DNA of 64,000 nt from Pseudobdellovibrionaceae bacterium (GCA_018663505.1 JABJQG010000020.1:152152-216151); one strand, 5' to 3'; numbered from the stretch's first letter, positions 41,764 to 63,715 are shown. Notes: generated by a model not told the origin, from the letters alone. Numbers and translations: made by a program.

Positions 41764-42096
41764 TTATAGTTTCCGGCAAACCGCTTGAACAATAGCACCT
41801 GGCTCACCGCTATTTATTGCATGAGCAACCAATTTTGAACCTGGTGTAAAAATAGTTGTAGATGCACCATATGAGTGACTTATTGATATAGTATAAGTCT
41901 CCTCACCTGTTGATTGTGTGGCTTTAAAAATTCTAAATCTGAAATCACCGAGGGTTGTATTAATAGTATTATTACCGTCAAAAACAAAATCAGAGTCCAA
42001 GTTCACACGGTTGTTTTTTACCTTCAATTTACAATTATAAGATGCAAATGCTGCTGAAGTTTGCATTAACAGAAATAATATAACTATTGTTTTCAT
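41764..42096 (-). CDS. small secreted hypothetical protein (P-palindrome-associated)
   Basis: 110 aa. Signal peptide MKTIVILFLLMQTSAAFA. Palindrome P1 lies 78 nt upstream. Confidence 0.55.
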   Translation of the reverse strand: MKTIVILFLLMQTSAAFASYNCKLKVKNNRVNLDSDFVFDGNNTINTTLGDFRFRIFKATQSTGEETYTISISHSYGASTTIFTPGSKLVAHAINSGEPGAIVQAVCRKL

Positions 42097-42174
42097 AGTT
42101 CCCCCTCTTAGTTTTTATCACATAAACACTATCCGTCTGTAATCTGCAGAGTCAAATAACATTAAAATAAACTA

Positions 42175-42190
42175 TGGGCAAACTTGCCCA
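42175..42190 (-). promoter_or_regulatory. P1: 16 bp palindrome TGGGCAA-NN-TTGCCCA, candidate operator
   Basis: Read towards the 41764..42096 gene it is GTGGGCAAGTTTGCCCATAGTTTATT. This is nearly identical to P4 including the asymmetric 3' flank. Confidence 0.55.
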
Positions 42191-42720
42191 CATTCATTTA
42201 ACAATTGATAAATAACATACTGGTTTACTAGAGAGGAATGGTTAGAAAACTACCCTGCTGGGTTTTCAAAAATGCATAAGTAAACCTAACTTTAAACTGG
42301 ATTAGGGTAAACATCAATAATTCAACTGAGGTTGAGTTATTTTTATATAGTGTGGAAATTATTTATGAAAAGATTTTTAAAACTTAGGATTCTCTCTTCT
42401 ATATCAAAAATAATTCTTGATGATCTTCCAGAAGTAGACTCCAAGTTTAAAATGTAGGAAAGGCACGTTCACTTGGAATTTTTTACAATTGATAGATTTA
42501 AAACACTAATCAGCTAATTTTGATTTTCGGTTCTGAAACGCTGATATCCAATCTTTCCGATATTTTAAAGCTAGCGTTCGTGATCAAATATTAAGAAATC
42601 ATTTGTTATAATGTACATTATTTTTACAACTCAAGATATTTTACAAGATGTCCATATAAACAAGAAAGTTTTATATAAATTTGATATTATAGTAAAAATT
42701 AAATTTCTTAGGAGATATAT

Positions 42721-43161
42721 TTGAAAAATATTATAGTATTATTAACCTTAATTTTTGGAGTATACCCAACTTATGTTTTTGCAACAGAGAACGCTTTGGA
42801 TACAGCTGGTGATATTTTAAAACATCAAACTCTTAAAAATTATGTAAGTGAGAACCTTCAAGTTGACCCCTCATCTGTTTATTACTTTTTTGCAGGTATT
42901 AGACCCATCAAATATGGAACTAAGAACCAAATTCGTACCAGTGAGCACCTTCTTACTTACACTCATTCATACTATGATAATACATTATGCCAATTGAAAG
43001 TTACGACCCGAAAGCCATTAGTTGAGACTGTTATTGTTCCCAAAAATAAGCAGTTTCAAATTGAAAAACTTTGTTGGCCTTCAAAACCAGGAGTTTTAGA
43101 TTCTAATGATCCTACATTTGAGAGTCTAACTAAAGAACCTTTTATAAATTTATTTTACTGA
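42721..43161 (+). CDS. small secreted hypothetical protein
   Basis: 146 aa from a TTG start preceded by AGGAG. Signal peptide ..YVFA. Confidence 0.5.
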   Translation: MKNIIVLLTLIFGVYPTYVFATENALDTAGDILKHQTLKNYVSENLQVDPSSVYYFFAGIRPIKYGTKNQIRTSEHLLTYTHSYYDNTLCQLKVTTRKPLVETVIVPKNKQFQIEKLCWPSKPGVLDSNDPTFESLTKEPFINLFY

Positions 43162-43183
43162 TTAAAAAAATAAGAGGCCTAGC

Positions 43184-44128
43184 TTACTTCACAACAAAAA
43201 GACCTGACCCCCAAGTTCCAATAACTAGTAAATTACTTTTTGTCTTAACATGAACCACAGGTATTTGAGCTAAACTATGTTTGTATACACCTGTTGCTAA
43301 ATTCAAATTTATAAGACCATTATCCCAAGTTCCTAAGATTAATTCACCTGAACTTAGATACGAAGCCGATGAAAAAGATTTTGAAATTCCAGGGAATTTA
43401 AGTTCTTCCCACTCTTCTTCTTTATTGGTAGAACGTAAAACTCCTTTTTTCTCTGAGACAACAACTACTTCATTTATGTTTAATGGATTTACTTCGGCAA
43501 AAAATGGAGACTCAATTTCAATAATGGAGTTCCATGTGTTTCCAGAGTCTTTAGATAGGTAAACTCTACCATCCAAAGATGAAGCTGTTATCACCTGACC
43601 ACTTGCCAGCACATTTAATGACCAAAAAAATTCATTGGGTACCTTTAACTTTTTCCAATTTAAACCACCATCAATGCTTTTAAATAGTCCACTATCTGAT
43701 GTGGCAAGATACACTTCTAAAGGAGAACTTTCCACAATTTTTATATCCCTTATATCAGAAGAAGAAATTGTCTTTGATTTCTTAAAACTATTTCCATTAT
43801 CCATTGATAGAAATAAGCCATGCTTCCACGTGCCTGCAAGAATTAATTTAGGAGTATATGCTACGGATTGAACGTCGGTGGCTTGGGGTGACAGTGGTTT
43901 ACCACTGTTCAGGACTTTCCAAGTTTTCCCAAAATTTCTACTTTCATAAACAAATGCTGAGCCAACGGCGGCCCCCTTGTTTCCAACTAAAATTTTATTT
44001 GTACTTTGATAATCAAGGCTTAATGAACGAACAACTTTCCCTTTAAGGCTATGAATAACTTCTGCTGTACTAGAAAAAGTGAAAAGAAATAAAGATAAAA
44101 AAATATTAAACTTTAAAAAAATAATCAT
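43184..44128 (-). CDS. BNR/Asp-box repeat beta-propeller protein, secreted
   Basis: 314 aa. Repeated SxDxGxTW-type boxes: SRNFGKTW, SMDNGNSF, SIDGGLNW, SKDSGNTW. Confidence 0.7.
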   Translation of the reverse strand: MIIFLKFNIFLSLFLFTFSSTAEVIHSLKGKVVRSLSLDYQSTNKILVGNKGAAVGSAFVYESRNFGKTWKVLNSGKPLSPQATDVQSVAYTPKLILAGTWKHGLFLSMDNGNSFKKSKTISSSDIRDIKIVESSPLEVYLATSDSGLFKSIDGGLNWKKLKVPNEFFWSLNVLASGQVITASSLDGRVYLSKDSGNTWNSIIEIESPFFAEVNPLNINEVVVVSEKKGVLRSTNKEEEWEELKFPGISKSFSSASYLSSGELILGTWDNGLINLNLATGVYKHSLAQIPVVHVKTKSNLLVIGTWGSGLFVVK

Positions 44129-44303
44129 ACTAACCCCTTAGCTTTATTGAATATACAATTTATTTCTGCCAACATGATAACCTTATTTCGTTTCTAGAAC
44201 ACTATCATACTCCGTAGTTATAATGGCACAAAAAATCATTAAGAATTTTTCCAATGTAGTCCCTTGAAAATTAAGCGTTAACTCATTTTATTCAAGCCAC
44301 TAT

Positions 44304-44582
44304 TTATTTATCATCTGTGCCTAGACATCTAAAGGCAGCGGACACTTCAATATGACTGTATGTACCTACACAGCGATTAGAAGTATTCCACTCAGAGACT
44401 TGCTCTACTTCTGATTTACACTTACTTTCAGCGTCTTTTATAGCAATAAGTATCGCTGATTTAACATGTTCATTGTCTCCACATGGTATACTCATATTTT
44501 CTCCTGATGAACCAACGATAAGATCAATTGCGTGTAAATTTATAGATGTTAATATTATCAAAGCTTGCATTAATTTAAACAT
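44304..44582 (-). CDS. small secreted Cys-containing hypothetical protein
   Basis: The track ORF extends to 44687. ATG at 44582 has AAAGGAG 6 nt upstream and begins a signal peptide (MFKLMQALIILTSINLHA). Confidence 0.5.
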   Translation of the reverse strand: MFKLMQALIILTSINLHAIDLIVGSSGENMSIPCGDNEHVKSAILIAIKDAESKCKSEVEQVSEWNTSNRCVGTYSHIEVSAAFRCLGTDDK

Positions 44583-44759
44583 GGTAACTCCTTTATTATT
44601 TTTTATACTGTCTCCCAAGAGTAGATATAAATATAATAAGTAATCTTTATTACTATGATAGTTATAATTAATGATTAAAAACCCCAATACACTGATTAAT
44701 TTTTCACATCAACCCTGTGCTTTAAGGTATGTTTTAGCAGCTTAGACTTGGCTCTGAAC

Positions 44760-44779
44760 AACCTATACTGTTTTAGTGA
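44760..44779. repeat. left copy of a 20 nt inverted repeat (AACCTATACTGTTTTAGTGA)
   Basis: Its reverse complement occurs at 45953..45972 with 19/20 identity. The pair brackets the 45014..45706 gene. Confidence 0.7.
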
Positions 44780-45013
44780 CAAAGAGTCCTTTATGACCAC
44801 GGCCTTGATTAACGATATTTCTTTCTAAAAATTATTAATTTTACGAGAAAATCAAAATGTAGTTAAACTCACTATAATTTAAAAGTTCCATAAAAATCTA
44901 ATCAACGGGGCGCACTCCAATAGACATAGTTCTATTCGTTATGTCTGATTAACGAGGTAACAATTAATCTTCAGATATTTTTTATAAAATTTTGCATATT
45001 ACTAAAGTATCTA

Positions 45014-45706
45014 TCAATGACAAACTTTTGGATTGCAGTCAAAATTGAAAGGGTCACGACAATATCTTCCAGGGTGAAAATCCCATGAAACAGGTGTGAA
45101 TTCAAAATCAAACTGCTTTAACTCTTTATTCGAGTCCGCTTTATAAAAAATCATAGATGCTGTATTTTTTAAAGTCTGTCCAAAATCGCTGCTCCAAATT
45201 AACAAATTTAAGTCTGGGTCAAAAACAGGTCGAACATTCAAGTCTTCGGTGTAGGGAAAATAGTTAGGTAACCATGTATACTCAATTGAATCAAACTCAA
45301 GCCAATAGGAAGGGGTGGCATCAAAACGGGCATGATGAGGGCTTAAATCAGAGTTCATATATGCTACTAATCGATAGATGTCTTTAAACTTCAAGCGTTC
45401 ACTATTTGCTGAAGAAAAATCTCCTTCATAATTTATTTCTACTCCAAGTCCACCGGAGTACTGTTTACCTCTAAGACTAATAAGTCCTTTTTCTAGCACT
45501 AGTTCGCGAGGTTCATTTTTATCACAGTAAACAGGTCTAAATCGATGATTACCTTTTGGTAACCAAGAACACCCTTTTGAATAAACGCTTATTTTAAAAT
45601 TAGTTGAAACGAAAGTAGGATCTTGACATCTTATCTGAGAAAGATCTGAGTTACTGGCCCATGAAAATGTTGAATAGATTAGTATCAAAATAATAAAAAA
45701 CTTCAT
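45014..45706 (-). CDS. secreted hypothetical protein (P-palindrome-associated)
   Basis: The track ORF extends to 45760. The start at 45706 gives signal peptide MKFFIILILIYSTFSWA. Palindrome P2 lies 93 nt upstream. Confidence 0.55.
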   Translation of the reverse strand: MKFFIILILIYSTFSWASNSDLSQIRCQDPTFVSTNFKISVYSKGCSWLPKGNHRFRPVYCDKNEPRELVLEKGLISLRGKQYSGGLGVEINYEGDFSSANSERLKFKDIYRLVAYMNSDLSPHHARFDATPSYWLEFDSIEYTWLPNYFPYTEDLNVRPVFDPDLNLLIWSSDFGQTLKNTASMIFYKADSNKELKQFDFEFTPVSWDFHPGRYCRDPFNFDCNPKVCH

Positions 45707-45799
45707 ACCGTTTCCCCTAGTAAAGCAATAACTATAAGATTCAAGGATGCATACAATCACAGAATTTTATTTTTAACAATACCATGAGAGTAAATATTG

Positions 45800-45815
45800 C
45801 GGGCAACTTTGCCAA
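45800..45815 (-). promoter_or_regulatory. P2: palindrome variant TTGGCAAAGTTGCCCG, candidate operator
   Basis: Read towards the gene it is ACGTTGGCAAAGTTGCCCGCAATA. This matches P5 at 23 of 24 positions. Confidence 0.5.
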
Positions 45816-45952
45816 CGTATTTATTTTTCACGTCAACAACCCAATCTCAAATATCCAAAATTTTATTTTAAGGTACTGAGATCGAGATATTTTAAGTTTT
45901 CTGTGTTTTAAAACTGGTGTTTGAGATCAAATATTATGGAAATCTTATTTTC

Positions 45953-45972
45953 TCACTAACACAGTATAGGTT
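45953..45972. repeat. right copy of the 20 nt inverted repeat
   Basis: TCACTAACACAGTATAGGTT is the reverse complement of 44760..44779 with one mismatch. Confidence 0.7.
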
Positions 45973-46028
45973 ATGCAAGAATTTCCTTATGTAGTTCAAA
46001 ATCACCGAAAAGCGCAGGCTTTCTGTTC

Positions 46029-46048
46029 CAACCTGTTTATTTATCATT
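46029..46048 (+). repeat. E1: 20-mer CAACCTGTTTATTTATCATT shared by LRR gene upstream regions
   Basis: Identical 20-mer at 47437..47456. Both copies sit 25-28 nt upstream of a P palindrome. Confidence 0.75.
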
Positions 46049-46073
46049 GGGTTTTAAATTGAAAAATTAACTG

Positions 46074-46089
46074 CGGGCAGGATTGCCCA
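46074..46089 (+). promoter_or_regulatory. P3: degenerate palindrome CGGGCAGGATTGCCCA, candidate operator
   Basis: 70 nt upstream of the LRR gene start. Followed by TAGATTT, like P1 and P4. Confidence 0.45.
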
Positions 46090-46159
46090 TAGATTTTTTT
46101 AAATCTATTTGACGTTGAGAATATAATTTGTTCTTTCATCCTCAAACCAAGGGGGAAAT

Positions 46160-47068
46160 ATGATAAAAAAAATATTTACAATCACAGCATTATTAAGTTT
46201 TACGTTAAATGTCCAGGCACATATAAAAGTAACACCTGGAAAGTGCTTTCAGTTTAACATGCTTGGAAATGGTTTAGAGATCACACATTATGACACGTCA
46301 TGCTCAAAGGATGTTGTAATACCACGTGAGGCGAGCGGGAGAGAAGTTGTAAGCATTGGGGAGTCTGCTTTTAGTCGACAAGAGCTGACCTCAATATTAA
46401 TCCCAGAAAGCATCAAGGTAATTAAGTCATGGGCATTTGCTAGTAATAAGCTAAAAACAGTTGAAATTCCAGACAGCGTGACGAAAATCGGTGAAGAGGC
46501 ATTTAATAGAAATAATCTGGAGTCTGTTAAGATTGGAGTGGGCTTAACTGAAATTGAGTATGGTACCTTTGCTCGCAACAGACTAACCTCAATCGATATT
46601 CCAGGTAATGTAAAAGTTATTGGGTGGGAAGCATTTACTGATAATATGTTAGGTACGTTGGTATTACCGTATGGAGTTACGAATATTGAAAGAGATGCAT
46701 TTAGCTACAATAAATTAACTTATGTTTATCTTCCTGATAGTGTTAGATCGATTAAACATCAAGCATTTCTAAAAAATAATCTTATCACCATAAATCTCCC
46801 TGATAGCCTAACATACCTTGGAGGAAGTGCTTTTGCTTATAATGACCTAGTTTCAATTGTAATACCTGTGGGGATCACAAAAATTAGAAGAGCTACATTT
46901 CTTTCAAATAAATTAAGATCAATTGTAATTCCAGATAGTGTAACCTCTATTGCGGAAAGGGCTTTTTCATATAATTATTTAAGAACAGTTGAAATTCCAG
47001 CTAACACTTCGATCAATGAGCAAGGGTTTGATTCATTTGATGATTTTGTCAAAATTATTAGAAGATGA
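46160..47068 (+). CDS. BspA-type leucine-rich repeat (LRR_5) protein, secreted
   Basis: 302 aa. Signal peptide. About 10 tandem ~23-aa repeats of the type IPxSVxxIGxxAFxxNxLxS. Confidence 0.8.
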   Translation: MIKKIFTITALLSFTLNVQAHIKVTPGKCFQFNMLGNGLEITHYDTSCSKDVVIPREASGREVVSIGESAFSRQELTSILIPESIKVIKSWAFASNKLKTVEIPDSVTKIGEEAFNRNNLESVKIGVGLTEIEYGTFARNRLTSIDIPGNVKVIGWEAFTDNMLGTLVLPYGVTNIERDAFSYNKLTYVYLPDSVRSIKHQAFLKNNLITINLPDSLTYLGGSAFAYNDLVSIVIPVGITKIRRATFLSNKLRSIVIPDSVTSIAERAFSYNYLRTVEIPANTSINEQGFDSFDDFVKIIRR

Positions 47069-47125
47069 AATTAATAAAACGATTATTTAAGGGTTGTATA
47101 CTGCCTAACATTTGTAATCATAACC

Positions 47126-47156
47126 CTTGTTTTCCACGAAGGTTTTCATCGAAAAG
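47126..47156 (+). repeat. C1: 31 nt module CTTGTTTTCCACGAAGGTTTTCATCGAAAAG
   Basis: 31/31 identical to 56781..56811. Both copies lie just downstream of + strand secreted-protein genes. Confidence 0.8.
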
Positions 47157-47182
47157 CACAGTTGAAATGATTGGTAGCTAAT

Positions 47183-47219
47183 GCACAGGCCATGAAAAAA
47201 ATCGTGGCTATCAATCAAG
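47183..47219 (+). repeat. D1: 37 nt module with hairpin GCCAYGA-A6-TCGTGGC
   Basis: GCACAGGCCATGAAAAAAATCGTGGCTATCAATCAAG. Second copy at 48323..48359 (35/37). Each lies 80-115 nt after an LRR gene stop. Confidence 0.75.
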
Positions 47220-47375
47220 TAGTTTGACCTGCGCCCCTCTGCTGAGACACTGTCCAGGATTCATTCAGGTTTATAGTTAAATTTTGAATGCTAAATCTTT
47301 CTAATAAATCGGTGGACTTTTTCTAAACTAGTAAATTTAGATACCTGAAAATCAATGTTTTGAATCACAGAGAAG

Positions 47376-47432
47376 AAAGGTACTGACACACTTCTGAGAC
47401 ACGGTGGGTCTCAGAAGTGTGTCAGTACCTTT
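47376..47432. repeat. B1: type B perfect hairpin (25 bp stem, 7 nt loop)
   Basis: AAAGGTACTGACACACTTCTGAGAC-ACGGTGG-GTCTCAGAAGTGTGTCAGTACCTTT. I verified the arm complementarity base by base. Confidence 0.9.
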
Positions 47433-47436
47433 CCTT

Positions 47437-47456
47437 CAACCTGTTTATTTATCATT
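47437..47456 (+). repeat. E2: second copy of the 20-mer CAACCTGTTTATTTATCATT
   Basis: Identical to 46029..46048. Confidence 0.75.
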
Positions 47457-47484
47457 TGTTTTCCGACTGTGAAAAAAATATAGG

Positions 47485-47500
47485 TGGGCAAACTTGCCCA
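47485..47500 (+). promoter_or_regulatory. P4: 16 bp palindrome TGGGCAAACTTGCCCA, candidate operator
   Basis: 128 nt upstream of the second LRR gene. Perfect 7 bp arms. The flank ATAGTTTATT is shared with P1. Confidence 0.55.
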
Positions 47501-47628
47501 TAGTTTATTGTAGATCAATTTTTGTTTTCATCTACTCTTATGATATATTACATTTTAAGAGCGTGATTAAAATTTTCTACTCTTGAATAAATATTTAGAA
47601 AATATGAACAAAATGAAAAGGATATTTT

Positions 47629-48240
47629 ATGAAAGAAATTATTTTTGGATTAACACTTTTGACCTCACTGATATCATTTGGGGAGGTACCTGGCAGTACT
47701 GAACATATTGAGCCTGGCGCCTTTTCTAGCCTAATATCTCTTGAGCAGGTCGATCTTAGCAACGCAAGCTCACCGACCACCCCTACTGAGTGTTTTCAAT
47801 TTGCTGAACTCGAAAACGATATTATTATTACTGCTTATTTTCAATGGAGGGGTGATGAATGCACAAAGGATGTTTCAATACCTTCTCATATTAATGGTAA
47901 AAGAGTTACCACTATCGGGTATAAAGCACTTAATGAATTAGGGCTTACATCTTTGAAACTACCTAATACTATAACTTTAATTGAAGGTTATGCATGCTCT
48001 CAAAACAACATCAAAGACTTGGTAATACCGAGCAGTGTCATTTTTATTGGCTATGGTGCTTTTTTAAATAATCCTCAACTATCTAAGTTGACTCTTTCTG
48101 GTCAACTTAAAGTGATTAGCAATCGGGCATTCAGAGATACTAATTTAAGTACTATAGAAGTTTTCCATTTAACACAAGAGAACTCAGATTCGTTTGATGA
48201 CGACGTAGAAATTGTAAAGAAATATACTCGTGAATTTTAG
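47629..48240 (+). CDS. BspA-type leucine-rich repeat (LRR_5) protein, secreted (short paralog)
   Basis: 203 aa. Shares ECFQF..C.KDV.IP....G..V..IG and a C-terminal DSFDD.V.I block with the 46160 gene. Confidence 0.75.
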   Translation: MKEIIFGLTLLTSLISFGEVPGSTEHIEPGAFSSLISLEQVDLSNASSPTTPTECFQFAELENDIIITAYFQWRGDECTKDVSIPSHINGKRVTTIGYKALNELGLTSLKLPNTITLIEGYACSQNNIKDLVIPSSVIFIGYGAFLNNPQLSKLTLSGQLKVISNRAFRDTNLSTIEVFHLTQENSDSFDDDVEIVKKYTREF

Positions 48241-48322
48241 AATTAAAAGCTTGTAACTCAAATGACTTGGTATCAACCTAATCTTGGACCGATGAACTAA
48301 GAGAAAGTGATCGGTCCGTAAA

Positions 48323-48359
48323 GCACAGGCCACGAAAAAAATCGTGGCTATGAATCAAG
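48323..48359 (+). repeat. D2: second copy of the 37 nt D module
   Basis: GCACAGGCCACGAAAAAAATCGTGGCTATGAATCAAG. Confidence 0.75.
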
Positions 48360-48399
48360 GATTTTCCACAATTAATATTGCTCAAAAATTCATAGTTAC

Positions 48400-49815
48400 T
48401 TAATCGAGCAAATCATCTAACACATCAGAGATTTCTTTTTTTATTTGCTGATGTCCATTTTTAGAAGCCTCATTTAACGAACTAAATCCGAAATGTTTTA
48501 GAAGCATCTTCCTCTGAGGTAAGCTCAATAGATATCTTATAGCTTGTAAATTTCCTTTGGCTGACATTATATTAAGCACAGATCTATTGCTATTGCCAAC
48601 AGCCAAAATATTTGCCCCACCCTCAATAGCTAGTTTGATCCCCGCTAAATTGTTGTTGTGAGCTTCTAGTAATAGTTCGATATTATTTACATTCTCTGCC
48701 AGCTTATCCATGCCCAAAAGACTGCTATATTCTTCAAGCCAGCCCCCAAGACCCCTAAGACTCCGCGCTCCTTCCCAGTATGCAAGTACAAGCTTTCTAT
48801 CATTAAATTCAATCGAAGAACCGTCACAAGACTGTTTTTCGACCACTGATTCAACTCGAAGCCTTTTACGTTCAGCGGCATTTAAGGTGCTTATCATTTC
48901 TATAAATGCGATCGACTTCTCACTGACAGGTGTATATCTTACTTTTTCAATAATTTCCCAAAAGGTTTTGTACTCAGGTTCATGCATATATGGACCCAGG
49001 CTTTCATAATCATACCCATTATTTATTTTACAATTTATTTCTTCGCCATTAGAAGAAGTGAAGCAAAGTCCACGTCTATAAATAAACATTTTCCTTAGTC
49101 CTAACAAAACCTTATTAATCTCTTTAAGTGTTAGAATATCATGCAAGCTTTTTTCGAGATCATCATACATCCAGCTCAAATGACTCTGTCTTATTTCAGT
49201 GAATGGTATAAAGAATTTTTTAAAGGATTCTCTGGCTTTTCGAGTTAGAGGGCAGATATTTTTAAGGGGAAGGCCTTCAATAATTGGATCCATACTATAT
49301 GCCCTTATGGAAGCTAACGCCTCATGGTTGTTTTTCACTGGTTTGAATAACTCCCAATATACAGAATTAAAATCCACGGCATCATTAGCTGAATTGTAGG
49401 GTTTATTATATGATATGAATTTATTTAAAAGTTTATTTATGAGTTCATCAGAAATACTTTGATAGTTCTTGTTTAAGTTTCTTTTTCTATAAAAATAATT
49501 TAAGTCATAGTAAAGGTTTAAAAGAAAGAAATGATCAGAAAATACATAACCATTTTGATGTGGACTATGTGCGTATGTATGTGCTGAATGCTTCCCTGTA
49601 ATAAAAAAATCTCTGAGACTGGGATCTATGAATTTATCAGGACTATCTGCTCCTAAAGATATAAGTAAATCTCTCCCATTCAAAGTGCGGCTAGAATGCC
49701 CTCGGCCCACCAAGGGTCCTATAACAAAATTTTGATATGATCTATCATAGGCTGTTGCATTTTGTAAAAAGAGAAAGAAGGAGTAAAAAAAGATTAGGTT
49801 AAATTTATAGTTCAT
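48400..49815 (-). CDS. secreted hypothetical protein with C-terminal ankyrin-like repeats
   Basis: 471 aa. Signal peptide ..LQNATA. C-terminal LLEAHNNNLAGIKLAIEGGANILAVGNSNRSVLNIMSAKGNLQAIRYLL is ANK-like. Confidence 0.5.
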   Translation of the reverse strand: MNYKFNLIFFYSFFLFLQNATAYDRSYQNFVIGPLVGRGHSSRTLNGRDLLISLGADSPDKFIDPSLRDFFITGKHSAHTYAHSPHQNGYVFSDHFFLLNLYYDLNYFYRKRNLNKNYQSISDELINKLLNKFISYNKPYNSANDAVDFNSVYWELFKPVKNNHEALASIRAYSMDPIIEGLPLKNICPLTRKARESFKKFFIPFTEIRQSHLSWMYDDLEKSLHDILTLKEINKVLLGLRKMFIYRRGLCFTSSNGEEINCKINNGYDYESLGPYMHEPEYKTFWEIIEKVRYTPVSEKSIAFIEMISTLNAAERKRLRVESVVEKQSCDGSSIEFNDRKLVLAYWEGARSLRGLGGWLEEYSSLLGMDKLAENVNNIELLLEAHNNNLAGIKLAIEGGANILAVGNSNRSVLNIMSAKGNLQAIRYLLSLPQRKMLLKHFGFSSLNEASKNGHQQIKKEISDVLDDLLD

Positions 49816-50097
49816 TCTATCCGTCCAATTTATAAAGGCTTTAAAGTATTCATTACCAATATTTGGAATAAAGTTAACACGAATTGACCTTGATTGTGTC
49901 TGCGTAAAAAGTTCGTTTTATCTTTTTTCTGGTGATTTTTCTTGGGTCGAAGATATTTTGACTATGAAGTCCTGCTTGTAGTCCCCTACTTTTTATCCTG
50001 TATCTATTTAATAGCTCAGCTAAACTGATATGCACAAAACCCAGTAAGCTCTTCTATGAGCGTAGGAGTACCACTTCTATTGATGACTAGACTGTTG

Positions 50098-52236
50098 TTA
50101 ATTTTCTTTTAACAGTCCACTTTGACAGATTTTCTGTTGATACACAGGAAGTAAACTAAAGTTTTTCTTACATGTTGGGAGGTTATTTTTTACTGCTTGT
50201 TTAAATAGCCTTTCACTTTCTGAAGGCGGTTCATTTTCTGCCGTCTGAAAAGGCTTACTTGATCTGTAGAGACTATAGAATTTACTGGGAGTACTTAATA
50301 AATCAATAATAAAATTTTCGTCTTCAGCCTCTGCTGTTTTCACTGAATTACCGTAAGACAAAATTTTATCTGTACCCACGGTAACTCCCACACCTGAATA
50401 CATTGCTACACTATCTGCAGCCAATTGAGATTCATTATTTTCATTATTTTTGTTATAGTTATTTGCAGTAATGGCTGTCCCTGTTGTGATTAAACCTAAA
50501 CTAAGTTTATCCTTACCTGAAACTTTTTTAAATAGGCTACCATCTTTAAATTTACTCACAGGATCCTTGGCCGCTTTTACAGCAGCTAGACTAAAACTTT
50601 TAGCTTTCACTCCCATTGCTTCCATCAGGCGTTGCCCACTAATAGGTTTTATTTTTTTAGCAGTCTCAATGGGCCGAATAATCTTCAAGCCATTACTTAA
50701 TGTACTAAACCCCAGTTTGCCCCATTTAACCTGTGGAAGAAGCGATGCTATGGCAATTAAGGCTCCAGCACTGTCTGAAAGAATATTTCTTAATTCATCA
50801 CTAGATTTTTTATCAGAGACTCGGTCTAAGTATTCACAAAGTTTGTCACTTAATGCTGGATTTATGATAATTGCAGCAATACTTTCGTTGGGATAGTATT
50901 TAAAATTTTCCACTAAACGTTTTAATGAGTCGTCTATCTGACCTTCTATTGAAGTCGGCAGGTAGTCCAGCTCCATCCTTTGAAGGTTTTTTTTTCGAGT
51001 GTTCCTTGGGTTTCGTTTTTTATTAGCATTTTCATTTAAAGAAAGGACTTCATTAACCTTATCAAAGGATTGCTGTGCCTGCTCACTAGAGTAATTCAAT
51101 GCACTTTTTAGTCCTTTTAGTCTTTTCTGTAAGAGTTCTTCATATCTGTGGGCACCATATTCTGGGGCATACTGATCATAACTATGTTCTTGAGTACCTA
51201 TGGAGCCTTGGACCTTAACCCTCTTAATTACTTTTTTCTTTTTTTCATCTTCTAATAAAAACTCAAGCGCAATATTATAAGGAGAATCTCCTAACTCCTT
51301 AAGGATAAGCTTGGAAAGATGACGAGAGTTTCCAATCTTATTACTTACATCTTTTCCATCTACTACAAGATAAGATCTAACCTTTTGAGTAGCAGGGCTA
51401 TAGTCAGCATATGCTTTGCATCGAGGGTAACAACTTAATAACTTTCCATCACCCAATAATTTAAGTTTAACTTTCAATTTTTTATTAAGGGCCTTTAATT
51501 TTAAATTCTCCAATTGGTTCGCAAACTTGGCTATCCTTTCATATCTACTTTCAAAATCTACATGCAGATCAGAAAAATTATCATATTCACTTCCCTGGTA
51601 AAAGTACCCTTCTTTTTTCTCACACGAAAACTCAAAGTAAGTATCTTTTTTTTCGGAATATTTGTATTTCATAAAAGGTCGATCTTCACACTTATTATAT
51701 TTTAAAAACTCATATTCCTCTAAAACAGCACTTAGTGAACTAATATCATTTGCATTCTCAGAAGTAACTGCATCTAAACTTTGTAAGTTAATTTTTTCAA
51801 GATTTATTGCGTCTTCTGCTGGACTTGATAATTCTTCAGAAAATTCAAACTTTATAGTATCTATTTCAACTTGATTGTTCCTGAGGTTTCGTTTATGCAG
51901 CTCACAACTATTATAAGAACCCATTTTGCTAAGGGTAGAAGCGAAACTTTTAAGCTCTTTTCTTGTGCATATCATAAATTTGTTATACAATTTTTCTGAA
52001 AAATTGATCCTCTCCTTTAAATTTTTAAAAAGAGAATATCTCTCTTCGGACTGTTTGCCGCCTTTGGCTTTCAATTTTTCAATTTCCACATCAATTTGTC
52101 TTTTCATTTCTGGCACATTAATTTTTTCAATTGGGTAATTATCAAGAACATGCATTAGAGCTAAACTGTCATCCGCAAAAATTGAATAACTAAAAACTAA
52201 AAAAACTAAAGAGAGTAGGTATTTCCTTAAGAACAT
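50098..52236 (-). CDS. large secreted hypothetical protein
   Basis: 712 aa. Signal peptide MFLRKYLLSLVFLVFSYSIFA. Lys/Glu-rich, no recognised domain. Confidence 0.55.
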   Translation of the reverse strand: MFLRKYLLSLVFLVFSYSIFADDSLALMHVLDNYPIEKINVPEMKRQIDVEIEKLKAKGGKQSEERYSLFKNLKERINFSEKLYNKFMICTRKELKSFASTLSKMGSYNSCELHKRNLRNNQVEIDTIKFEFSEELSSPAEDAINLEKINLQSLDAVTSENANDISSLSAVLEEYEFLKYNKCEDRPFMKYKYSEKKDTYFEFSCEKKEGYFYQGSEYDNFSDLHVDFESRYERIAKFANQLENLKLKALNKKLKVKLKLLGDGKLLSCYPRCKAYADYSPATQKVRSYLVVDGKDVSNKIGNSRHLSKLILKELGDSPYNIALEFLLEDEKKKKVIKRVKVQGSIGTQEHSYDQYAPEYGAHRYEELLQKRLKGLKSALNYSSEQAQQSFDKVNEVLSLNENANKKRNPRNTRKKNLQRMELDYLPTSIEGQIDDSLKRLVENFKYYPNESIAAIIINPALSDKLCEYLDRVSDKKSSDELRNILSDSAGALIAIASLLPQVKWGKLGFSTLSNGLKIIRPIETAKKIKPISGQRLMEAMGVKAKSFSLAAVKAAKDPVSKFKDGSLFKKVSGKDKLSLGLITTGTAITANNYNKNNENNESQLAADSVAMYSGVGVTVGTDKILSYGNSVKTAEAEDENFIIDLLSTPSKFYSLYRSSKPFQTAENEPPSESERLFKQAVKNNLPTCKKNFSLLPVYQQKICQSGLLKEN

Positions 52237-52557
52237 AAGCTCTATTTCGGTGACTTTTTTTTAAAACAAAATAGGCAACAGGAAACACGACTAAGGGCCA
52301 TGCAAATGAAGATAAGGTGTAACCCTGGAACTCTGCCTGTCACCTTTGCTTCACCCGGGAAGACTCTCAACTTGTTATACTGGCTGGACCTCACACTTAC
52401 TACGAAATTCAGTGATTTGGTTGAGTTCTTGAATTACCCCTAATGCTCCTCTAAAAGGGTAATTTCTAGACAGTTTGGTGACAATTATTGGCTTAACAAA
52501 TTAATTGATTAATCCATTAATTTTATTTGAAAATAGCAGGTCTAGAAACAATGTTTA

Positions 52558-52573
52558 TGGCCTTTGCCTTGCA
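52558..52573 (+). promoter_or_regulatory. sigma-54-like -24/-12 element TGGCCTTTGCCTTGCA
   Basis: GG and GC are at the canonical spacing of TGGCAC-N5-TTGCA. Lies about 40 nt upstream of the ATG at 52614. No enhancer-binding protein gene is visible in the window. Confidence 0.3.
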
Positions 52574-52613
52574 TATTAAAATGTATGGTTTTAAACAAAT
52601 TGAGTAAAATGAG

Positions 52614-53777
52614 ATGAATTTAATGACAATAATACCCAATTCTAAAAAAATTAGATGGGTCCTTCTGCTATTTATAGTTTTTTTACAAGCATTACCATAT
52701 AAAGCACATTCTTCTTTAAGTTGTAAGATACTTTTTTCTGGACTTAAAATCTCTGAATTTGGTGATGGAGGGGTTACAGTAAACAATGTCGCTGTTACAG
52801 GAAAATACGAATACAATACCTATACTGTAGCACAAAATCTGAAATTAAAAACAGAAGAACTTACTGAGTGGGCTTCCAATGACTTAAAAGTTCTTTCCAT
52901 AGCTGAAGGGGTTAGTGGCCTATTGCCAACAATGCTAAGTTACGGTGTCAATGCTAAAGCATTAGACTTATGGTACAATGGTAAGGATTACGTTAATAAT
53001 CATATAGGTATTCAAATGTTTGAATTTGTCCAAAATTATAGAAATTACCTAATTCGTGGAGATGCCAGATCAATGCCCATTGAAAGTAATTCTATTGATA
53101 TAGTTCTAAGTCATAGACTTTTTAATAACATAAATAATAATTCTGTAATGGAAGTCGTTTACGATGTCCTTAGAATATTAAAACCTGGAGGAGAAGCTCG
53201 ATTTGATGCTAGTCCTGAAACCGCAAAATACGTTTTGAGAGAATTAGATTTAATTGAACAAAAAGATACAATTTCTTCATTTGAAAATAATTTACTCATT
53301 ATAAAAAAATTAGGTTCAAGAAAGGTTCATGAAATCAGTTTTCCAAAACAGAAGTCCATTCATATTTCACAGATCACACCAATTGTCCTCGATCTTTCTA
53401 TCGAGAGAATTGACAAAGATGACATTGGTTCAATTCATATATCAAAGCTTAGGCCCCTTGAAAAAAAGTCTGATCACCATGAGGATAATTATTCAAAATT
53501 AGACGAATCTATGTTTTCAGATTATTTTTATGTTGCCATGAAGGCAGGTGATATATTAAATATTCATGGGGTTACTAATGAATATGCAAAGGGAATTAAG
53601 ATTTTAACTGAGGCGATTTATGATGGCATTTTTGATATTAAAATTGTAAAAGACCCTTTTATTCCTAAAAAAATTGTTAACACAGATAATAAAAGTATTT
53701 CTGACACAGGGCTAACTGATTTTAGCCATCAGTTTTCTGATTTAGGTATATTAACTATAGAACGTAAAAAAAACTAA
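52614..53777 (+). CDS. class I SAM-methyltransferase-like protein with signal-like N-terminus and unknown C-terminal half
   Basis: 387 aa. VLSIAEGVSGLLP (atypical motif I), SIDIVLSHRLFNNI and VLRILKPGGEARF resemble Methyltransf_11-type blocks. Confidence 0.45.
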   Translation: MNLMTIIPNSKKIRWVLLLFIVFLQALPYKAHSSLSCKILFSGLKISEFGDGGVTVNNVAVTGKYEYNTYTVAQNLKLKTEELTEWASNDLKVLSIAEGVSGLLPTMLSYGVNAKALDLWYNGKDYVNNHIGIQMFEFVQNYRNYLIRGDARSMPIESNSIDIVLSHRLFNNINNNSVMEVVYDVLRILKPGGEARFDASPETAKYVLRELDLIEQKDTISSFENNLLIIKKLGSRKVHEISFPKQKSIHISQITPIVLDLSIERIDKDDIGSIHISKLRPLEKKSDHHEDNYSKLDESMFSDYFYVAMKAGDILNIHGVTNEYAKGIKILTEAIYDGIFDIKIVKDPFIPKKIVNTDNKSISDTGLTDFSHQFSDLGILTIERKKN

Positions 53778-53836
53778 ATTTATTTTTTAGTGATAACCAT
53801 TATCCCATCAAAATAAAAATTTATATTAAAATCTAA

Positions 53837-53886
53837 GTTCCAACTTATTTATGGGATGCAGTGAGTCCCAAAAGTGAGCTGGCACT
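53837..53886. repeat. A1: type A hairpin, degraded left arm
   Basis: Intact loop and right arm: ..TATGGGATGCAGTGAGTCCCAAAAGTGAGCTGGCAC. The left arm reads GTTCCAACTTATTT, about 10/14 identical to the consensus arm. Confidence 0.7.
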
Positions 53887-53924
53887 TTTGCATTTTGGGC
53901 TGTCGAGCATGTAGAAAATACACG

Positions 53925-53940
53925 TTGGCAAACTTGCCCG
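53925..53940 (+). promoter_or_regulatory. P5: palindrome variant TTGGCAAACTTGCCCG, candidate operator
   Basis: 90 nt upstream of the third LRR locus. ACGTTGGCAAACTTGCCCGCAATA matches P2. Confidence 0.5.
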
Positions 53941-54030
53941 CAATAAATTTATAAAAACTTTTCAATTAACCCAAATTAGAATCAACTCGTGTTAGAATAT
54001 GTCAAATTAATTTAAATCAAGGAAAATTAT

Positions 54031-54519
54031 ATGATTAAGATTGTTGTCAGTCTAATAACATTAGTTAATATCTTTGCCTATGCCGACACTGACTACAAAA
54101 TGCAGGTAATATCAAGCCCAAAAAGTTGCTTTGACTATTATGTATGGAACGATGAAGTTAGAATTAGAGGCTTTAAGAAAAATGGGTTTAATAATACGAA
54201 TTGTTTTCCAGACCTTGTTATTCCTTCAGAAATAGATGGGAAAAAAGTTAGTATTATTTAAGATTCTGCGTTTATAGCTAAAGGGCTTAACTCTGTCATC
54301 ATTTCAGAATATGTGATGTATATTGGAGAATGTGCGTTTTGTGACAATATTCATCTTAGCTCGGTGATATTTTCTGATAGTGCCGCATTATCAATAATAG
54401 GAAGATGGGCATTCATAAATACTAACTTAACGTCTGTAGATGTCCCCTCACATGTTTGGTTTAGAACAAAAGGAACTTTTGAAGACGCCGTTATCATAAC
54501 TAGAAGTAACAGATATTAA
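54031..54519 (+). pseudogene. BspA-type LRR paralog interrupted by one in-frame TAA
   Basis: Track ORFs 54031..54261 and 54313..54519 are in the same frame. Read through TAA (54259-54261) the sequence is ..IDGKKVSII*DSAFIAKGLNSVIISEYVMYIGECAF.., a continuous LRR_5 repeat. Confidence 0.7.
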
Positions 54520-56125: not shown

Positions 56126-56208
56126 AAGCTTAGGTGCCAGCTTACTTAAAGCTTAGGTGCCAGCTTACTTATGGGACGCAGTGAGTCCCATAAGTAAGCT
56201 GGCACCTA
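56126..56208. repeat. A2: type A hairpin with tandem duplication of the left arm
   Basis: The 23 nt unit AAGCTTAGGTGCCAGCTTACTTA occurs twice (56126-56148, 56149-56171). Then TGGGAC-GCAGTGA-GTCCCATAAGTAAGCTGGCACCTA. Confidence 0.9.
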
Positions 56209-56480
56209 GCTACAGTAATCTCTCAAGTATCAGTTTCTCAGAGCCTAAAAATAAAAACCTGTTTATCTAAAATTTATTTTCCGTACAAGTACAAATTCGT
56301 ATTCGTAATTGGAATCGTCTATATACTATACGATTTAGAGTCTATCTCCAGTCGCATAAAATGCTATTGGGTTTTGTTCAAGCTTTTTACACTTAGGTAT
56401 TTTTTTCAATTTTAGTAAATTTCCCCACCTAGAGTATTTAAACTTTGCTATAATGCTTAAAACAGTGAATAGGAGTCTGT

Positions 56481-56765
56481 ATGAGAATCATTTTTTCTTT
56501 AGTTTTTATTTTGTTTTCTATTACATCGAATGCCTCTCAGTATTTCCCTGAATGTGGTGAAAAAGCTGAAAGCTATGCAAAATCAATTGTTTCTGTAGGT
56601 CTTGTACACAAAACAGGTTCAGAGTTTTTGGGAAACAGCATGCTATATTCCAAGGAAAGAGAGTTATCCTTTAAAGTTACGATAGAAGGCAATAGCATTT
56701 GGGAAGTTTACGTTACTAAAAATGACTGCTTGCCTTTAAATTTAAGGCTTTTAGAACGTTTATAA
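56481..56765 (+). CDS. small secreted hypothetical protein
   Basis: 94 aa. Signal peptide ..ITSNAS. Extended -10-like TGCTATAAT at 56446-56454. Confidence 0.5.
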   Translation: MRIIFSLVFILFSITSNASQYFPECGEKAESYAKSIVSVGLVHKTGSEFLGNSMLYSKERELSFKVTIEGNSIWEVYVTKNDCLPLNLRLLERL

Positions 56766-56780
56766 ACCTGAACTAAACCA

Positions 56781-56811
56781 CTTGTTTTCCACGAAGGTTT
56801 TCATCGAAAAG
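56781..56811 (+). repeat. C2: second copy of the 31 nt C module
   Basis: Identical to 47126..47156. Here it abuts hairpin B2 directly. Confidence 0.8.
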
Positions 56812-56861
56812 GTACGGACACACTTCTGAGGTGCCGCGTGTCTCAAAAGTGTGTCCGCACC
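56811..56861. repeat. B2: type B hairpin, imperfect
   Basis: GGTACGGACACACTTCTGAG-GTGCCGCGTG-TCTCAAAAGTGTGTCCGCACC. There are two arm mismatches, and the loop region differs from B1. Confidence 0.75.
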
Positions 56862-56910
56862 TAAGTGTACTATGGGACGCAGTGAGTCCCATAAGTGAGC
56901 TGGCACCTAG
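56862..56910. repeat. A3: type A hairpin with truncated/replaced left arm
   Basis: TATGGGAC-GCAGTGA-GTCCCATAAGTGAGCTGGCACCTAG. Only 8 bp of the left arm is retained, and it is fused to the end of B2. Confidence 0.75.
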
Positions 56911-57922: not shown

Positions 57923-58131
57923 TAGAATCTCCCTTAATAGTCATTAAATTATTTTGGTGATTCTTATAATGCCGATTAATTAAGGTCAGAATAAGAGATC
58001 ACAATCTGTGTATTTAAATAACTCATAGTGACCTCCCGTTTAGATGTGTCCATAAAAAATGACAGCTGAAGAATAAACTGTCAAGTCTTGTGTTCGTATA
58101 CAATTAAAATTTAAAAAATGTGATAATTTTA

Positions 58132-58326
58132 TCATTTGTTAATCACCGGAAGTATAAACTCCATATGTGGTAGAAATAAATCGGGCTTGATACGAGATTG
58201 AATATCACCAATGCACTAAGTATTATCATACCCCCAAATTGATTTAGACCGTAATGCTAATTCAGTTAAGTACTTTGCCTTGGAAATATGAGCCGACCTT
58301 ATTTTGATCTTACTTATTGTATTCAT
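58132..58326 (-). pseudogene. GNAT acetyltransferase N-terminal remnant
   Basis: Hand-translated. GGAGG then ATG at 58326: MNTISKIKIRSAHISKAKYLTELALRSKSIWGYDNT, stop TAG at 58218-58216, then CIGDIQSRIKPDLFLPHMEFILPVINK and stop. The ..LALRSK..WGY.. pattern recalls a GNAT subfamily N-terminus. No acetyl-CoA-binding half follows. Confidence 0.35.
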
Positions 58327-58452
58327 TCCCGCCCTCCTATTCAGTAAACTATCCCACACAGCTTTAATTTTCAATAATAAATATTCCACTGAGTACTTGA
58401 ATGTTGATCAAGAAAATGAGGTAATTCATAATGTTTTAGGGGGTGTTCAATT

Positions 58453-59503: not shown

Positions 59504-59537
59504 TCCTGAATACATTGTTAGGCAATGATGTTCTCTG

Positions 59538-59588
59538 GGTGCCAGCTTACTTATGGGACGCAGTGAGTCCCATAAGTAAGCTGGCACC
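59538..59588. repeat. A4: type A hairpin, perfect (22 bp stem, 7 nt loop)
   Basis: GGTGCCAGCTTACTTATGGGAC-GCAGTGA-GTCCCATAAGTAAGCTGGCACC. Complementarity checked base by base. Lies between convergent genes. Confidence 0.92.
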
Positions 59589-59604
59589 TTGGAGTTTTGG
59601 AGTT

Positions 59605-60408
59605 CTAAAGTTCAAAAAAATCTACGCCATAGGAATAGATCGCCTCGTCCTTTGCAGTAGCAGCAATTTTACGGACATCTTCTATGGCTTGAATGAGGAT
59701 CTCTTTCACTTTATGGCTGTCTGATTTCGAAAAAGTTACAACAGATGAATAATGAAGATTTTCAGGCGAAGAAGTAAGGTGGTCTAGCGCTTTCAAACGC
59801 CAATTACGATGATGGCTCACAATTAAAGGGTTCTCATTTGCTAAATGAATTCTGGCTTGGCCAACGTCATAGCTTCCATTTTTTTTAATAATCAAATTAT
59901 TTTTTTCTAAAAAAATAAGACACTCTTTCACTTTAGAAATAGGTGCCGCCAACTTATTAGCGATAGCTTCTGCTGTTGCATACTCTTTAATTGAAGTCAA
60001 AATATGTGTAGCAGCATAAAGCCAGTTACTGTAGTAGATCAATTGAGCTTTTGGGTTTAATTCATAACCTTCTTTGATCCTTTGGCTCAGCACTTGGCTT
60101 TTATTTGTAATTTCCTTAAGTTTATTTTTTAAATATTTTTTGGTATTAGTGGTACCTGCACGCTGTAATAAAACTAAATTAACAAAATAGTCTGTTTCTA
60201 AATCATTAAGTATAAAATACGCACAAACCCCATAGGCTTGGTCAAAACTTAGGTCAGCATTTTTTGCGAGTATTTTAGACAAATAGGCCTGCTGGCATCC
60301 AATTTCATTTGCTAACGCACTTTGTAACCCTCGGCCTTTGTTGGGCTGAGCTAGTATCAAATCTCTTAGGTAATTCACATAGTTAGAATATAAAAATATA
60401 GTTTTCAT
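59605..60408 (-). CDS. putative HTH regulator, TIGR02147/DUF4423-like family
   Basis: 267 aa. The N-terminal Y..YLRDLI......GRGLQSALANEIGCQQAYLSKIL resembles the HTH region of that family. Recognised from memory only. Confidence 0.45.
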   Translation of the reverse strand: MKTIFLYSNYVNYLRDLILAQPNKGRGLQSALANEIGCQQAYLSKILAKNADLSFDQAYGVCAYFILNDLETDYFVNLVLLQRAGTTNTKKYLKNKLKEITNKSQVLSQRIKEGYELNPKAQLIYYSNWLYAATHILTSIKEYATAEAIANKLAAPISKVKECLIFLEKNNLIIKKNGSYDVGQARIHLANENPLIVSHHRNWRLKALDHLTSSPENLHYSSVVTFSKSDSHKVKEILIQAIEDVRKIAATAKDEAIYSYGVDFFEL

Positions 60409-60468
60409 AACTACTATTATAACTATAAGGAATAAATTATATCAATAATTAATTATAATTAATTTGTC

Positions 60469-60488
60469 TGGCAGCTATACATCTGCCA
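60469..60488. promoter_or_regulatory. inverted repeat TGGCAG-N8-CTGCCA in a divergent promoter region
   Basis: Perfect 6 bp arms. Lies between the putative HTH regulator start (60408) and the secreted-protein gene start (60525). Confidence 0.35.
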
Positions 60489-60524
60489 AGAATTACATTA
60501 AATCATTTTAACGAAGGGGAAAAA

Positions 60525-62411: not shown

Positions 62412-62455
62412 GGTGCCAGCTTACGGGGACGCAGTGAGTCCCGTAAGTGTGTCCA
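62412..62455. repeat. A5: type A hairpin variant, right arm switches to type B-like sequence
   Basis: GGTGCCAGCTTACGGGGAC-GCAGTGA-GTCCCGTAAGTGTGTCC. Pairing is lost beyond about 10 bp. Confidence 0.7.
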
Positions 62456-62472
62456 TTCCTAGCTTGTCTTTT

Positions 62473-62715: not shown

Positions 62716-62771
62716 TTTCCCACCCACCTTTTTGATCTGACACAAGTAACATAGTGCAAAAACAAACAAAA

Positions 62772-62854
62772 GGTGCCAGCTCACTTTTGGGACGCAGTGA
62801 GTCCCATAAGTGAGCTGGCACCTAGGCATTTAAGTGAGCTGGCACCTAGGCATT
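62772..62854. repeat. A6: type A hairpin with tandem duplication of the right arm
   Basis: GGTGCCAGCTCACTTTTGGGAC-GCAGTGA-GTCCCA, then the 24 nt unit TAAGTGAGCTGGCACCTAGGCATT twice (62807-62830, 62831-62854). Confidence 0.9.
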
Positions 62855-63390: not shown

Positions 63391-63641
63391 AACTTCATTA
63401 TAATTAATATTTTTAAAATATTATATTGCTCATTAAACTTATTCAAATTCTTCTATTTGAGCTTAAACTATATACCCAAATATTTAGGCCGATTTTAGGT
63501 GTTAAAGATCGTTTTCAGAAGATCTATAAAGTACTGATATTAAGGGACTAAACCACCTGCAAATAAATTGAGTTTAAAGGCACCTCCTAACAACAGGTCC
63601 CTTTCAATTCCTAGTAATATATAATATAAATATATAGAAAA

Positions 63642-63692
63642 GGTGCCAGCTCACTTATGAGACGCAGTGAGTCCCATAAGTGAGCTGGCACC
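63642..63692. repeat. A7: type A hairpin, one mismatch
   Basis: GGTGCCAGCTCACTTATGAGAC-GCAGTGA-GTCCCATAAGTGAGCTGGCACC. Confidence 0.9.
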
Positions 63693-63715
63693 TTGAGTAA
63701 CCACTGGGAGGCGGG

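Follow-up and report, generated by a model that had tools for sequence, protein, structure and literature searches.

We analyzed a 64,000-nucleotide stretch of DNA from the metagenome-derived genome of an uncultured marine Pseudobdellovibrionaceae bacterium (GCA_018663505.1 JABJQG010000020.1:152152-216151; hereafter the window) for a 16-bp palindrome, TGGGCAA-NN-TTGCCCA, that recurs at five sites in its right-hand part. The first 1-41 kb carry core genes, among them those for cytochrome oxidase, phosphoenolpyruvate (PEP) carboxykinase, ExbBD and two-component sensors. A variable island takes up the window from 41.7 kb; its intergenic regions are long and rich in repeats, and most of its genes match no family. 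The five sites, P1 to P5, lie there upstream of three genes for leucine-rich-repeat (LRR) proteins of the LRR_5 family and of two orphan genes for predicted secreted proteins (Table 1). The motif is not randomly distributed but occurs only in promoter regions and with a fixed orientation towards the gene, and it is the sequence rather than a structure that is conserved. It lies within a conserved block of about 40 bp and is most likely the operator of a dimeric regulator.

Five palindromic sites upstream of island genes

Our reading covered ~81 kb of the genome, composed of the 64-kb window and 17 kb of flanking DNA (9.5 kb to the left and 7.5 kb to the right). The palindrome was found at five sites with zero to two mismatches; the sites at 42175 and 47485 are exact and those at 45800, 46074 and 53925 carry two mismatches. 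All five had been listed in an initial annotation of this DNA, and both their positions and the presence of start codons 70-128 nt downstream were confirmed. The same annotation had seen the motif in no other intergenic region of the window, which agrees with our finding that the sole additional match at up to three mismatches, at 17923, sits within the cox1 coding sequence. In 500 dinucleotide-preserving shuffles 0.002 exact matches were expected compared with the two observed, and 0.27 matches with up to two mismatches compared with the five observed, and no shuffle gave more than two. Unrelated loci totaling 1.45 Mb contained three matches at up to two mismatches.

A weight-matrix scan, which had been proposed for the whole genome, was run on the ~81 kb. 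The five sites scored 23.5-26.8 bits with a matrix built from these same five sites, the next best position in the window reached 13.7 bits, nothing else in the DNA read exceeded that value and the 17 kb of flanks held no further site. Because of the gap between 23.5 and 13.7 bits, the five sites form a discrete set with no tail or continuum of weaker ones. All five are intergenic, although only 15.5% of the window is (chance probability 9e-5). Over-representation together with restriction to promoter regions is the distribution expected of a transcription-factor operator.

The initial annotation had described the downstream genes as a regulon of exported proteins. This label turned out to be non-specific: signal-peptide-like N-termini occur in ~19 of the 25 island genes, so being secreted fails to set the five genes apart, and the 9.5 kb to the left of the window contain more secreted-protein genes, none of which carries the motif. 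The clearer association is with LRR_5 genes, since the motif precedes all three of those in the window (hypergeometric probability 2e-4 for the window and 4e-3 for the island). Homologs of the LRR proteins are generic LRR_5 proteins only, with at most 48% identity, and the two that we traced come from a Firmicute and a jumbo-phage-like contig. The product of the gene behind P5 matches the other two LRR proteins with E-values of 7e-13 and 3e-12 (blastp). Its reading frame is interrupted by a TAA after codon 76, beyond which LRR-like sequence resumes in frame, and the region is identical in the one other assembly checked across that position (L081); either this is a pseudogene or its stop codon is read through. 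The product behind P2 is an orphan: when 1.84 billion representative proteins were searched exhaustively with HMMER, the sole match was the protein itself.

Table 1 Palindromic sites, downstream genes and other features of the island. Blocks span -15 to +25 around the palindrome.
Feature	Position (strand)	Core	Details
P1, class A	42165..42205 (-)	42175-42190	TGGGCAAGTTTGCCCA read towards gene; 25.5-26.8 bits; 78 nt upstream of ATG at 42096
P2, class B	45790..45830 (-)	45800-45815	TTGGCAAAGTTGCCCG read towards gene; TGAAAAAT at 45823-45830; 93 nt upstream of ATG at 45706
P3, class A proximal half	46059..46099 (+)	46074-46089	TGAAAAAT at 46060-46067; 70 nt upstream of ATG at 46160
P4, class A	47470..47510 (+)	47485-47500	TGAAAAAAAT at 47470-47479; 128 nt upstream of ATG at 47629; hairpin with a perfect 26-bp stem (47375-47433) 51 nt upstream
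P5, class B	53910..53950 (+)	53925-53940	90 nt upstream of ATG at 54031; hairpin-repeat copy 53833-53889 ends 35 nt upstream
Gene after P1	41764..42096 (-)		110 aa; signal-peptide-like N-terminus; no family match
Gene after P2	45014..45706 (-)		230 aa; signal-peptide-like N-terminus; orphan
Gene after P3	46160..47068 (+)		302 aa; BspA-type leucine-rich-repeat protein; LRR_5 E=2e-54; signal peptide
Gene after P4	47629..48240 (+)		203 aa; LRR_5 E=3.5e-20; signal peptide
Gene after P5	54031..54519 (+)		LRR paralog; in-frame TAA 54259-54261
Hairpin family, ~55-60 nt, near-perfect	47375-47433, 53833-53889, 56153-56208, 56808-56862, 56871-56910		
Hairpin family, further copies	59535-59590, 62417-62464, 62770-62825, 63640-63697		
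100-nt repeat	47126-47225, 48266-48365		71% identity
31-nt exact repeat	47126-47156, 56781-56811		
AACCTGTTTATTTATCATT box	46030-46057, 47438-47465, 56256-56283		upstream of P3; upstream of P4; before the gene at 56481
Long intergenic regions, 377-530 nt	42197-42720, 44583-45013, 52237-52613, 57923-58452		no called gene, no Rfam match

A conserved block around the palindrome

When the five regions were anchored on the dyad and each was read towards its gene, conservation extended from about -15 to +25 around the palindrome. The core is (T/C)(G/T)GGCA(A/G)-NN-TTGCCC(A/G), in which GGCA and TTGCCC are invariant (5/5) and the central dinucleotide is free, being GT, AC, GA, AG and AC among the five sites. 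A dyad with conserved half-sites and a less constrained center is the arrangement expected of an operator. The G at -1 is likewise invariant (5/5). Further upstream lies an A-rich element resembling an extended -10, TGAAAAAT or a variant of it. It takes the form TGAAAAA(A)(A)T, at -15/-14, in P2, P3 and P4 and thereby in both of the flank classes described below; the corresponding sequences are TGTAGAAAAT in P5 and TGTTAAAT in P1. At a background of 0.0044 per 14-nt window, the probability of finding this pattern in three of five sites is ~9e-7. The element ends 5-7 nt upstream of the dyad, and the core is followed by a T-rich stretch. At -11 to -6 every site has a -10-like hexamer (TTAAAT, AAAAAT, AAAATT, AAATAA or GAAAAT), with an adjacent TG in three of them. 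The unit that is conserved is thus not the 16 bp of the initial annotation but ~40 bp including the -10-like TGAAAAAT element, and it may combine promoter and operator in one cassette instead of being just an operator.

The sites fall into two classes according to their proximal flank, which is ATAGWTT in class A (P1, P3 and P4) and GCAATA in class B (P2 and P5). Within a class the similarity is extensive, as P1/P4 and P2/P5 share 36-37 nt at 83-84% identity, while between the classes the common sequence is reduced to the core and the A-rich upstream element. Since this is all that the classes share, selection on the core is indicated rather than recent copying. P3 is a hybrid, its distal half, GCGGGCAG, being similar to the proximal half of class B in reverse, and the three paralogous LRR genes carry different flank classes. 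The flanks quoted in the initial annotation, GTGGGCAA..TTGCCCATAGTTTATT for P1/P4, GCGGGCAGGATTGCCCATAGATTT for P3 and ACGTTGGCAAA(G/C)TTGCCCGCAATA for P2/P5, are correct. Its statement that they always face the gene is true at all five sites, yet as an argument it is weaker than it had seemed: one site per flank class fixes the direction, which leaves three independent sites and a probability of ~1/8.

A structured RNA element was tried as an explanation and rejected, as none of the differences among the five sites is compensatory and two of them disrupt pair 2-15. Rfam searches at gathering and relaxed thresholds returned nothing on the motif and only spurious microRNA (miRNA) matches on the long hairpin of the island. 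A metagenome scan with the class A word GGGCARNNTTGCCCATAGWTT gave nine matches, all of them due to chance as judged by their unrelated flanks and GC content. Scans of viral contigs with both flank classes gave one chance match each, one of them in a herpesvirus-like coding sequence of 60% GC. A weight-matrix scan of ~90 kb of DNA from relatives detected no site. The locus itself recurs in several marine assemblies and on a JGI contig, in each case with 100% identity to the window, and the DUF423 protein of the window is 100% identical to MBT4761161.1.

Repeats of the island and a candidate regulator gene

The intergenic DNA of the island is a mosaic of shared modules. One group is a family of hairpins (Table 1) with the form GGTGCCAGCTYACTTATGGGACGCAGTGAGTCCCATAAGTRAGCTGGCACC and a second variant, GGTACTGACACACTTCTGAGAC...GTCTCAGAAGTGTGTCAGTACC. 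The copies mostly follow genes, two stand directly upstream of P4 and P5, and the family attracts spurious Rfam miRNA matches at relaxed thresholds; these are either elements akin to repetitive extragenic palindromes (REP) and miniature inverted-repeat transposable elements (MITE), or terminators. The 100-nt and 31-nt repeats are located just past stop codons. The third copy of the AACCTGTTTATTTATCATT box precedes a gene that has no palindrome. The four long intergenic regions leave room for small RNAs, degraded genes or additional regulatory DNA. About 1.3 kb past the right end of the window (from 11338 of L098 onward) begins a giant gene, called as 8811 aa on the JGI contig, with a lipoprotein-like signal at the start of its product.

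The initial annotation had named the gene at 59605-60408 as its only helix-turn-helix candidate. It encodes a TIGR02147/DUF4423 protein, and its AlphaFold model (predicted local distance difference test, pLDDT, 79.8) contains an N-terminal Xre-like helix-turn-helix and a central winged helix; matches of the model to winged-helix and Xre-type folds are weak (all E>0.08). In relatives the gene forms a conserved divergent pair with a homolog of the secreted-protein gene at 60525. In the relative L113 as in the window, the signal peptide of the secreted partner is followed by a GESSGGG motif, and the L106 locus also has a divergent neighbor. The divergent intergenic regions (60409-60524 in the window, 933-1037 in L113 and 9861-10000 in L106) have an AT-rich, TTATAATTAA-like element in common. 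None of the orthologous loci L106, L107, L108 and L113 contains a GGCAA/TTGCC dyad. The intergenic region in the window holds a separate palindrome, TGGCAG-N8-CTGCCA, at 60472-60491. With these results the protein gained no support as the regulator.

A putative operator and its alternatives

We lean, with moderate confidence, towards reading the five sites as copies of one ~40-bp cis-regulatory module whose core would be bound, as an operator, by a dimeric regulator that recognizes a specific DNA sequence and is probably a helix-turn-helix protein. The initial annotation had proposed a dimeric transcription-factor site, and among the readings that we weighed this fits best, given the conserved half-sites, the free center, the lack of hairpin covariation and the exclusion of sigma-54 and sigma-28 geometries (see below). 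The operator reading draws on the conservation of sequence and not of structure, on the restriction to promoter regions and on the link to one gene family. The regulator would control the three LRR_5 genes for surface or secreted proteins together with the two orphan secreted-protein genes of the island, and the module would be directional because promoter-like sequence flanks the core. Binding of a protein, co-regulation of these genes and the sign of the regulation are what we infer from this pattern.

Two geometries are conceivable. In the first, which we slightly prefer, the TGAAAAAT-type element would act as an extended -10 with transcription starting at the first bases of the palindrome. 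The operator would then span ~ +1 to +16, a repressor position in which initiation would be blocked, and the ~40-bp block would be a complete, portable promoter-operator unit. Such a unit would explain why the block is oriented, why its distance to the start codon is free, and the placement of P4 and P5 35-51 nt after terminator-like hairpins. We prefer it slightly because the -10-like block is the only element conserved at a fixed distance. In the second geometry the promoter would lie downstream of the palindrome, which would serve as an upstream activator site. By prediction and direct reading, sigma-70-like promoters are found downstream of P1 (TTGACT-16-GATAGT), P3 (TTTAAA-18-TATAAT) and P5 (TGTTAGAAT). 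Relative to these the dyad center lies at about -62, -52 and -72, roughly one helical turn apart, at distances that vary from site to site.

Dimeric helix-turn-helix regulators bind dyads such as the 16-bp boxes of the PurR/LacI family, the 5-6-5 boxes of CRP/FNR and the operators of Xre/Cro-type proteins. The palindrome resembles these in its length of 16 bp, its dyad symmetry, its conserved outer half-sites with an unconstrained center and its presence in the promoter regions of several genes. LacI-family boxes have a central CG, which the palindrome lacks. The PurR box (ACGCAAAC/GTTTGCGT) shares GCAAAC with it but is 2 bp longer between the half-sites. We know of no consensus that matches GGGCAA/TTGCCC with a 2-nt spacer, and a literature search for the motif string found none either, in line with the initial annotation.

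Two alternative sigma factors were compared as well. The -24/-12 promoter of sigma-54, TGGCAC-N5-TTGCW, does not tolerate altered spacing. The sites have TGGCA and TTGC in the same order, but direct reading gives TGGCA-N3-TTGC, a gap of 3 nt instead of 6 and hence 3 bp too short, and a sigma-54 promoter was rejected. In Bdellovibrio bacteriovorus, the attack-phase consensus of sigma-28 (FliA) is TTAAG-N16-CCGATA (Karunker et al. 2013, PMC3627812). The modules resemble the sigma-28 promoters of this member of the same phylum in being directional and in standing upstream of surface and secreted-protein genes, as those do for many non-flagellar ones. The CCCATA of the class A sites matches CCGATA in five of six positions, and class B has CCCGCA. 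Unlike sigma-28 promoters, however, the sites have TTAA-like pentamers at 14-18 nt instead of TTAAG at a fixed 16 nt, and a dyad is not a requirement of sigma-28. Neither TTAAG-N16-CCGATA nor TAAA-N15-GCCGATAA is matched by the sites, and a sigma-28 promoter was likewise rejected.

Several observations weigh against the operator reading. Promoter predictions were no better than chance in this AT-rich DNA, with 37 found versus 51.5 expected in shuffles, and because matches are fewer than in shuffles, prediction does not fix the placement of the palindrome relative to the transcription start. A binding protein for the palindrome did not emerge from the window: the TIGR02147 protein is unsupported as regulator of the five sites, the element shared by its divergent promoter regions being AT-rich and not GGCAA/TTGCC, and the other window proteins examined contain no Pfam DNA-binding domain. 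The phylogenetic footprint is absent, as the targets are orphans or generic LRR genes and the other assemblies are 100% identical. The loci of relatives that were reached through the DUF423 protein (68-69% identity) and the TIGR02147 protein (41-56% identity) are non-syntenic and carry no site. The targets are only five genes, and the LRR members among them are paralogs and therefore non-independent. Finally, all five copies lie inside 12 kb and the other 69 kb read have none, so that a true regulon cannot be told apart from a promoter cassette that spread locally through duplication or gene conversion.

This clustering is also what would be left if promoter segments had been duplicated locally or copied by gene conversion in a recombination-prone island and the blocks were relics of this, the palindrome having been carried along without a function of its own. 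The repeat mosaic of the intergenic DNA, with its 55-nt hairpin family, 100-nt repeat, 31-nt exact repeat and AACCTGTTTATTTATCATT box, suits such an origin, as does the long within-class similarity of P1/P4 and P2/P5. We consider it quite unlikely all the same, because between the classes similarity falls to a 12-16 bp core and the A-rich element, and neutral decay would not spare exactly a dyad; moreover, the modules precede non-homologous genes on both strands and always at promoter distance. The block might instead be a self-contained promoter, of the extended -10 type or recognized by an alternative sigma factor, with the palindrome as the initial transcribed sequence, for example a 5'-terminal stabilizing stem-loop. 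Consistent with this, all sites have the -10-like hexamer, three with TG, and the invariant G at -1; the class A sites fold at -11.7 to -14.9 kcal/mol; and the module starts 51 nt (P4) and 35 nt (P5) past terminator-like hairpins, which is just enough room for a promoter. Yet the class B hairpins have 4 bp (z-scores of -0.7 and -1.6) and no pair covaries, and an RNA stem is therefore not the conserved feature. Given also the wrong spacing for sigma-54, the unmatched sigma-28 consensus and a GC-rich perfect dyad that a plain promoter would not need, we judge this explanation unlikely.

Site-specific recombination offers another role for a palindrome, either as a recombinase or transposase target at which inversion switches phase-variable LRR expression or as a mobile hairpin of the REP/MITE kind. 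Phase variation typically acts on cargo such as LRR surface proteins, P2 and P3 face each other across 258 bp between divergent genes in the layout of an invertible promoter, and the palindrome is, like REP/MITE elements, a short intergenic repeat in an island rich in hairpin repeats. We find this very unlikely, since the intergenic regions of P1, P4 and P5 contain no partner half-site, the orientation is unchanged, at 100% identity, in the three other assemblies that span both P2 and P3, terminal repeats and target duplications are absent around the block and no recombinase gene was noted in the island. Unlike REP/MITE elements, moreover, the palindrome is far shorter than the ~55-nt hairpins of the island, it always stands upstream facing a gene, and its similarity between classes is that of the core. 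In the weight-matrix scan copies never fell within or downstream of genes. The initial annotation had stated that a mobile repeat in any orientation and context would speak against its reading; the ~81 kb hold promoter-proximal, gene-facing copies only. Least probable, and to our mind highly unlikely, are intrinsic terminators or insulators against read-through into the downstream gene. A terminator scan did flag the class A sites, with 5-8 bp stems followed by T-rich tails, and P4 and P5 follow co-oriented genes, but the intergenic regions of P1, P2 and P3 are divergent, so that no co-oriented gene lies upstream, the class B stems are weak and have no T-tract, and far stronger hairpins already stand before P4 and P5.

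An extension of the operator reading, which we regard as rather unlikely, is that the ~40-bp block is a portable cassette that was grafted before unrelated, lineage-specific secreted-protein genes (three LRR adhesin-like and two orphans) in a hypervariable island of an uncultured marine predator; surface genes that are newly acquired or evolve fast would thereby come under one switch, for example in the predation phase or in phase variation, through a regulator of an uncharacterized family.

Overall, the palindrome belongs to a real, well-delimited cis-element and most likely serves, judging from sequence, as a transcription-factor operator within a compact promoter module. Features of this kind are familiar, this one being among the very many uncharacterized operator-like motifs in uncultured bacteria, seen here within a 12-kb island. 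About a third of the B. bacteriovorus attack-phase promoters have no recognized motif (PMC3627812), which makes any new regulatory word in the phylum useful. If the palindrome is a true operator, it would offer a 38-bp bait for its regulator and would group LRR and orphan secreted-protein genes into a small co-regulated set, in a marine Pseudobdellovibrionaceae lineage about whose gene regulation nothing is known.

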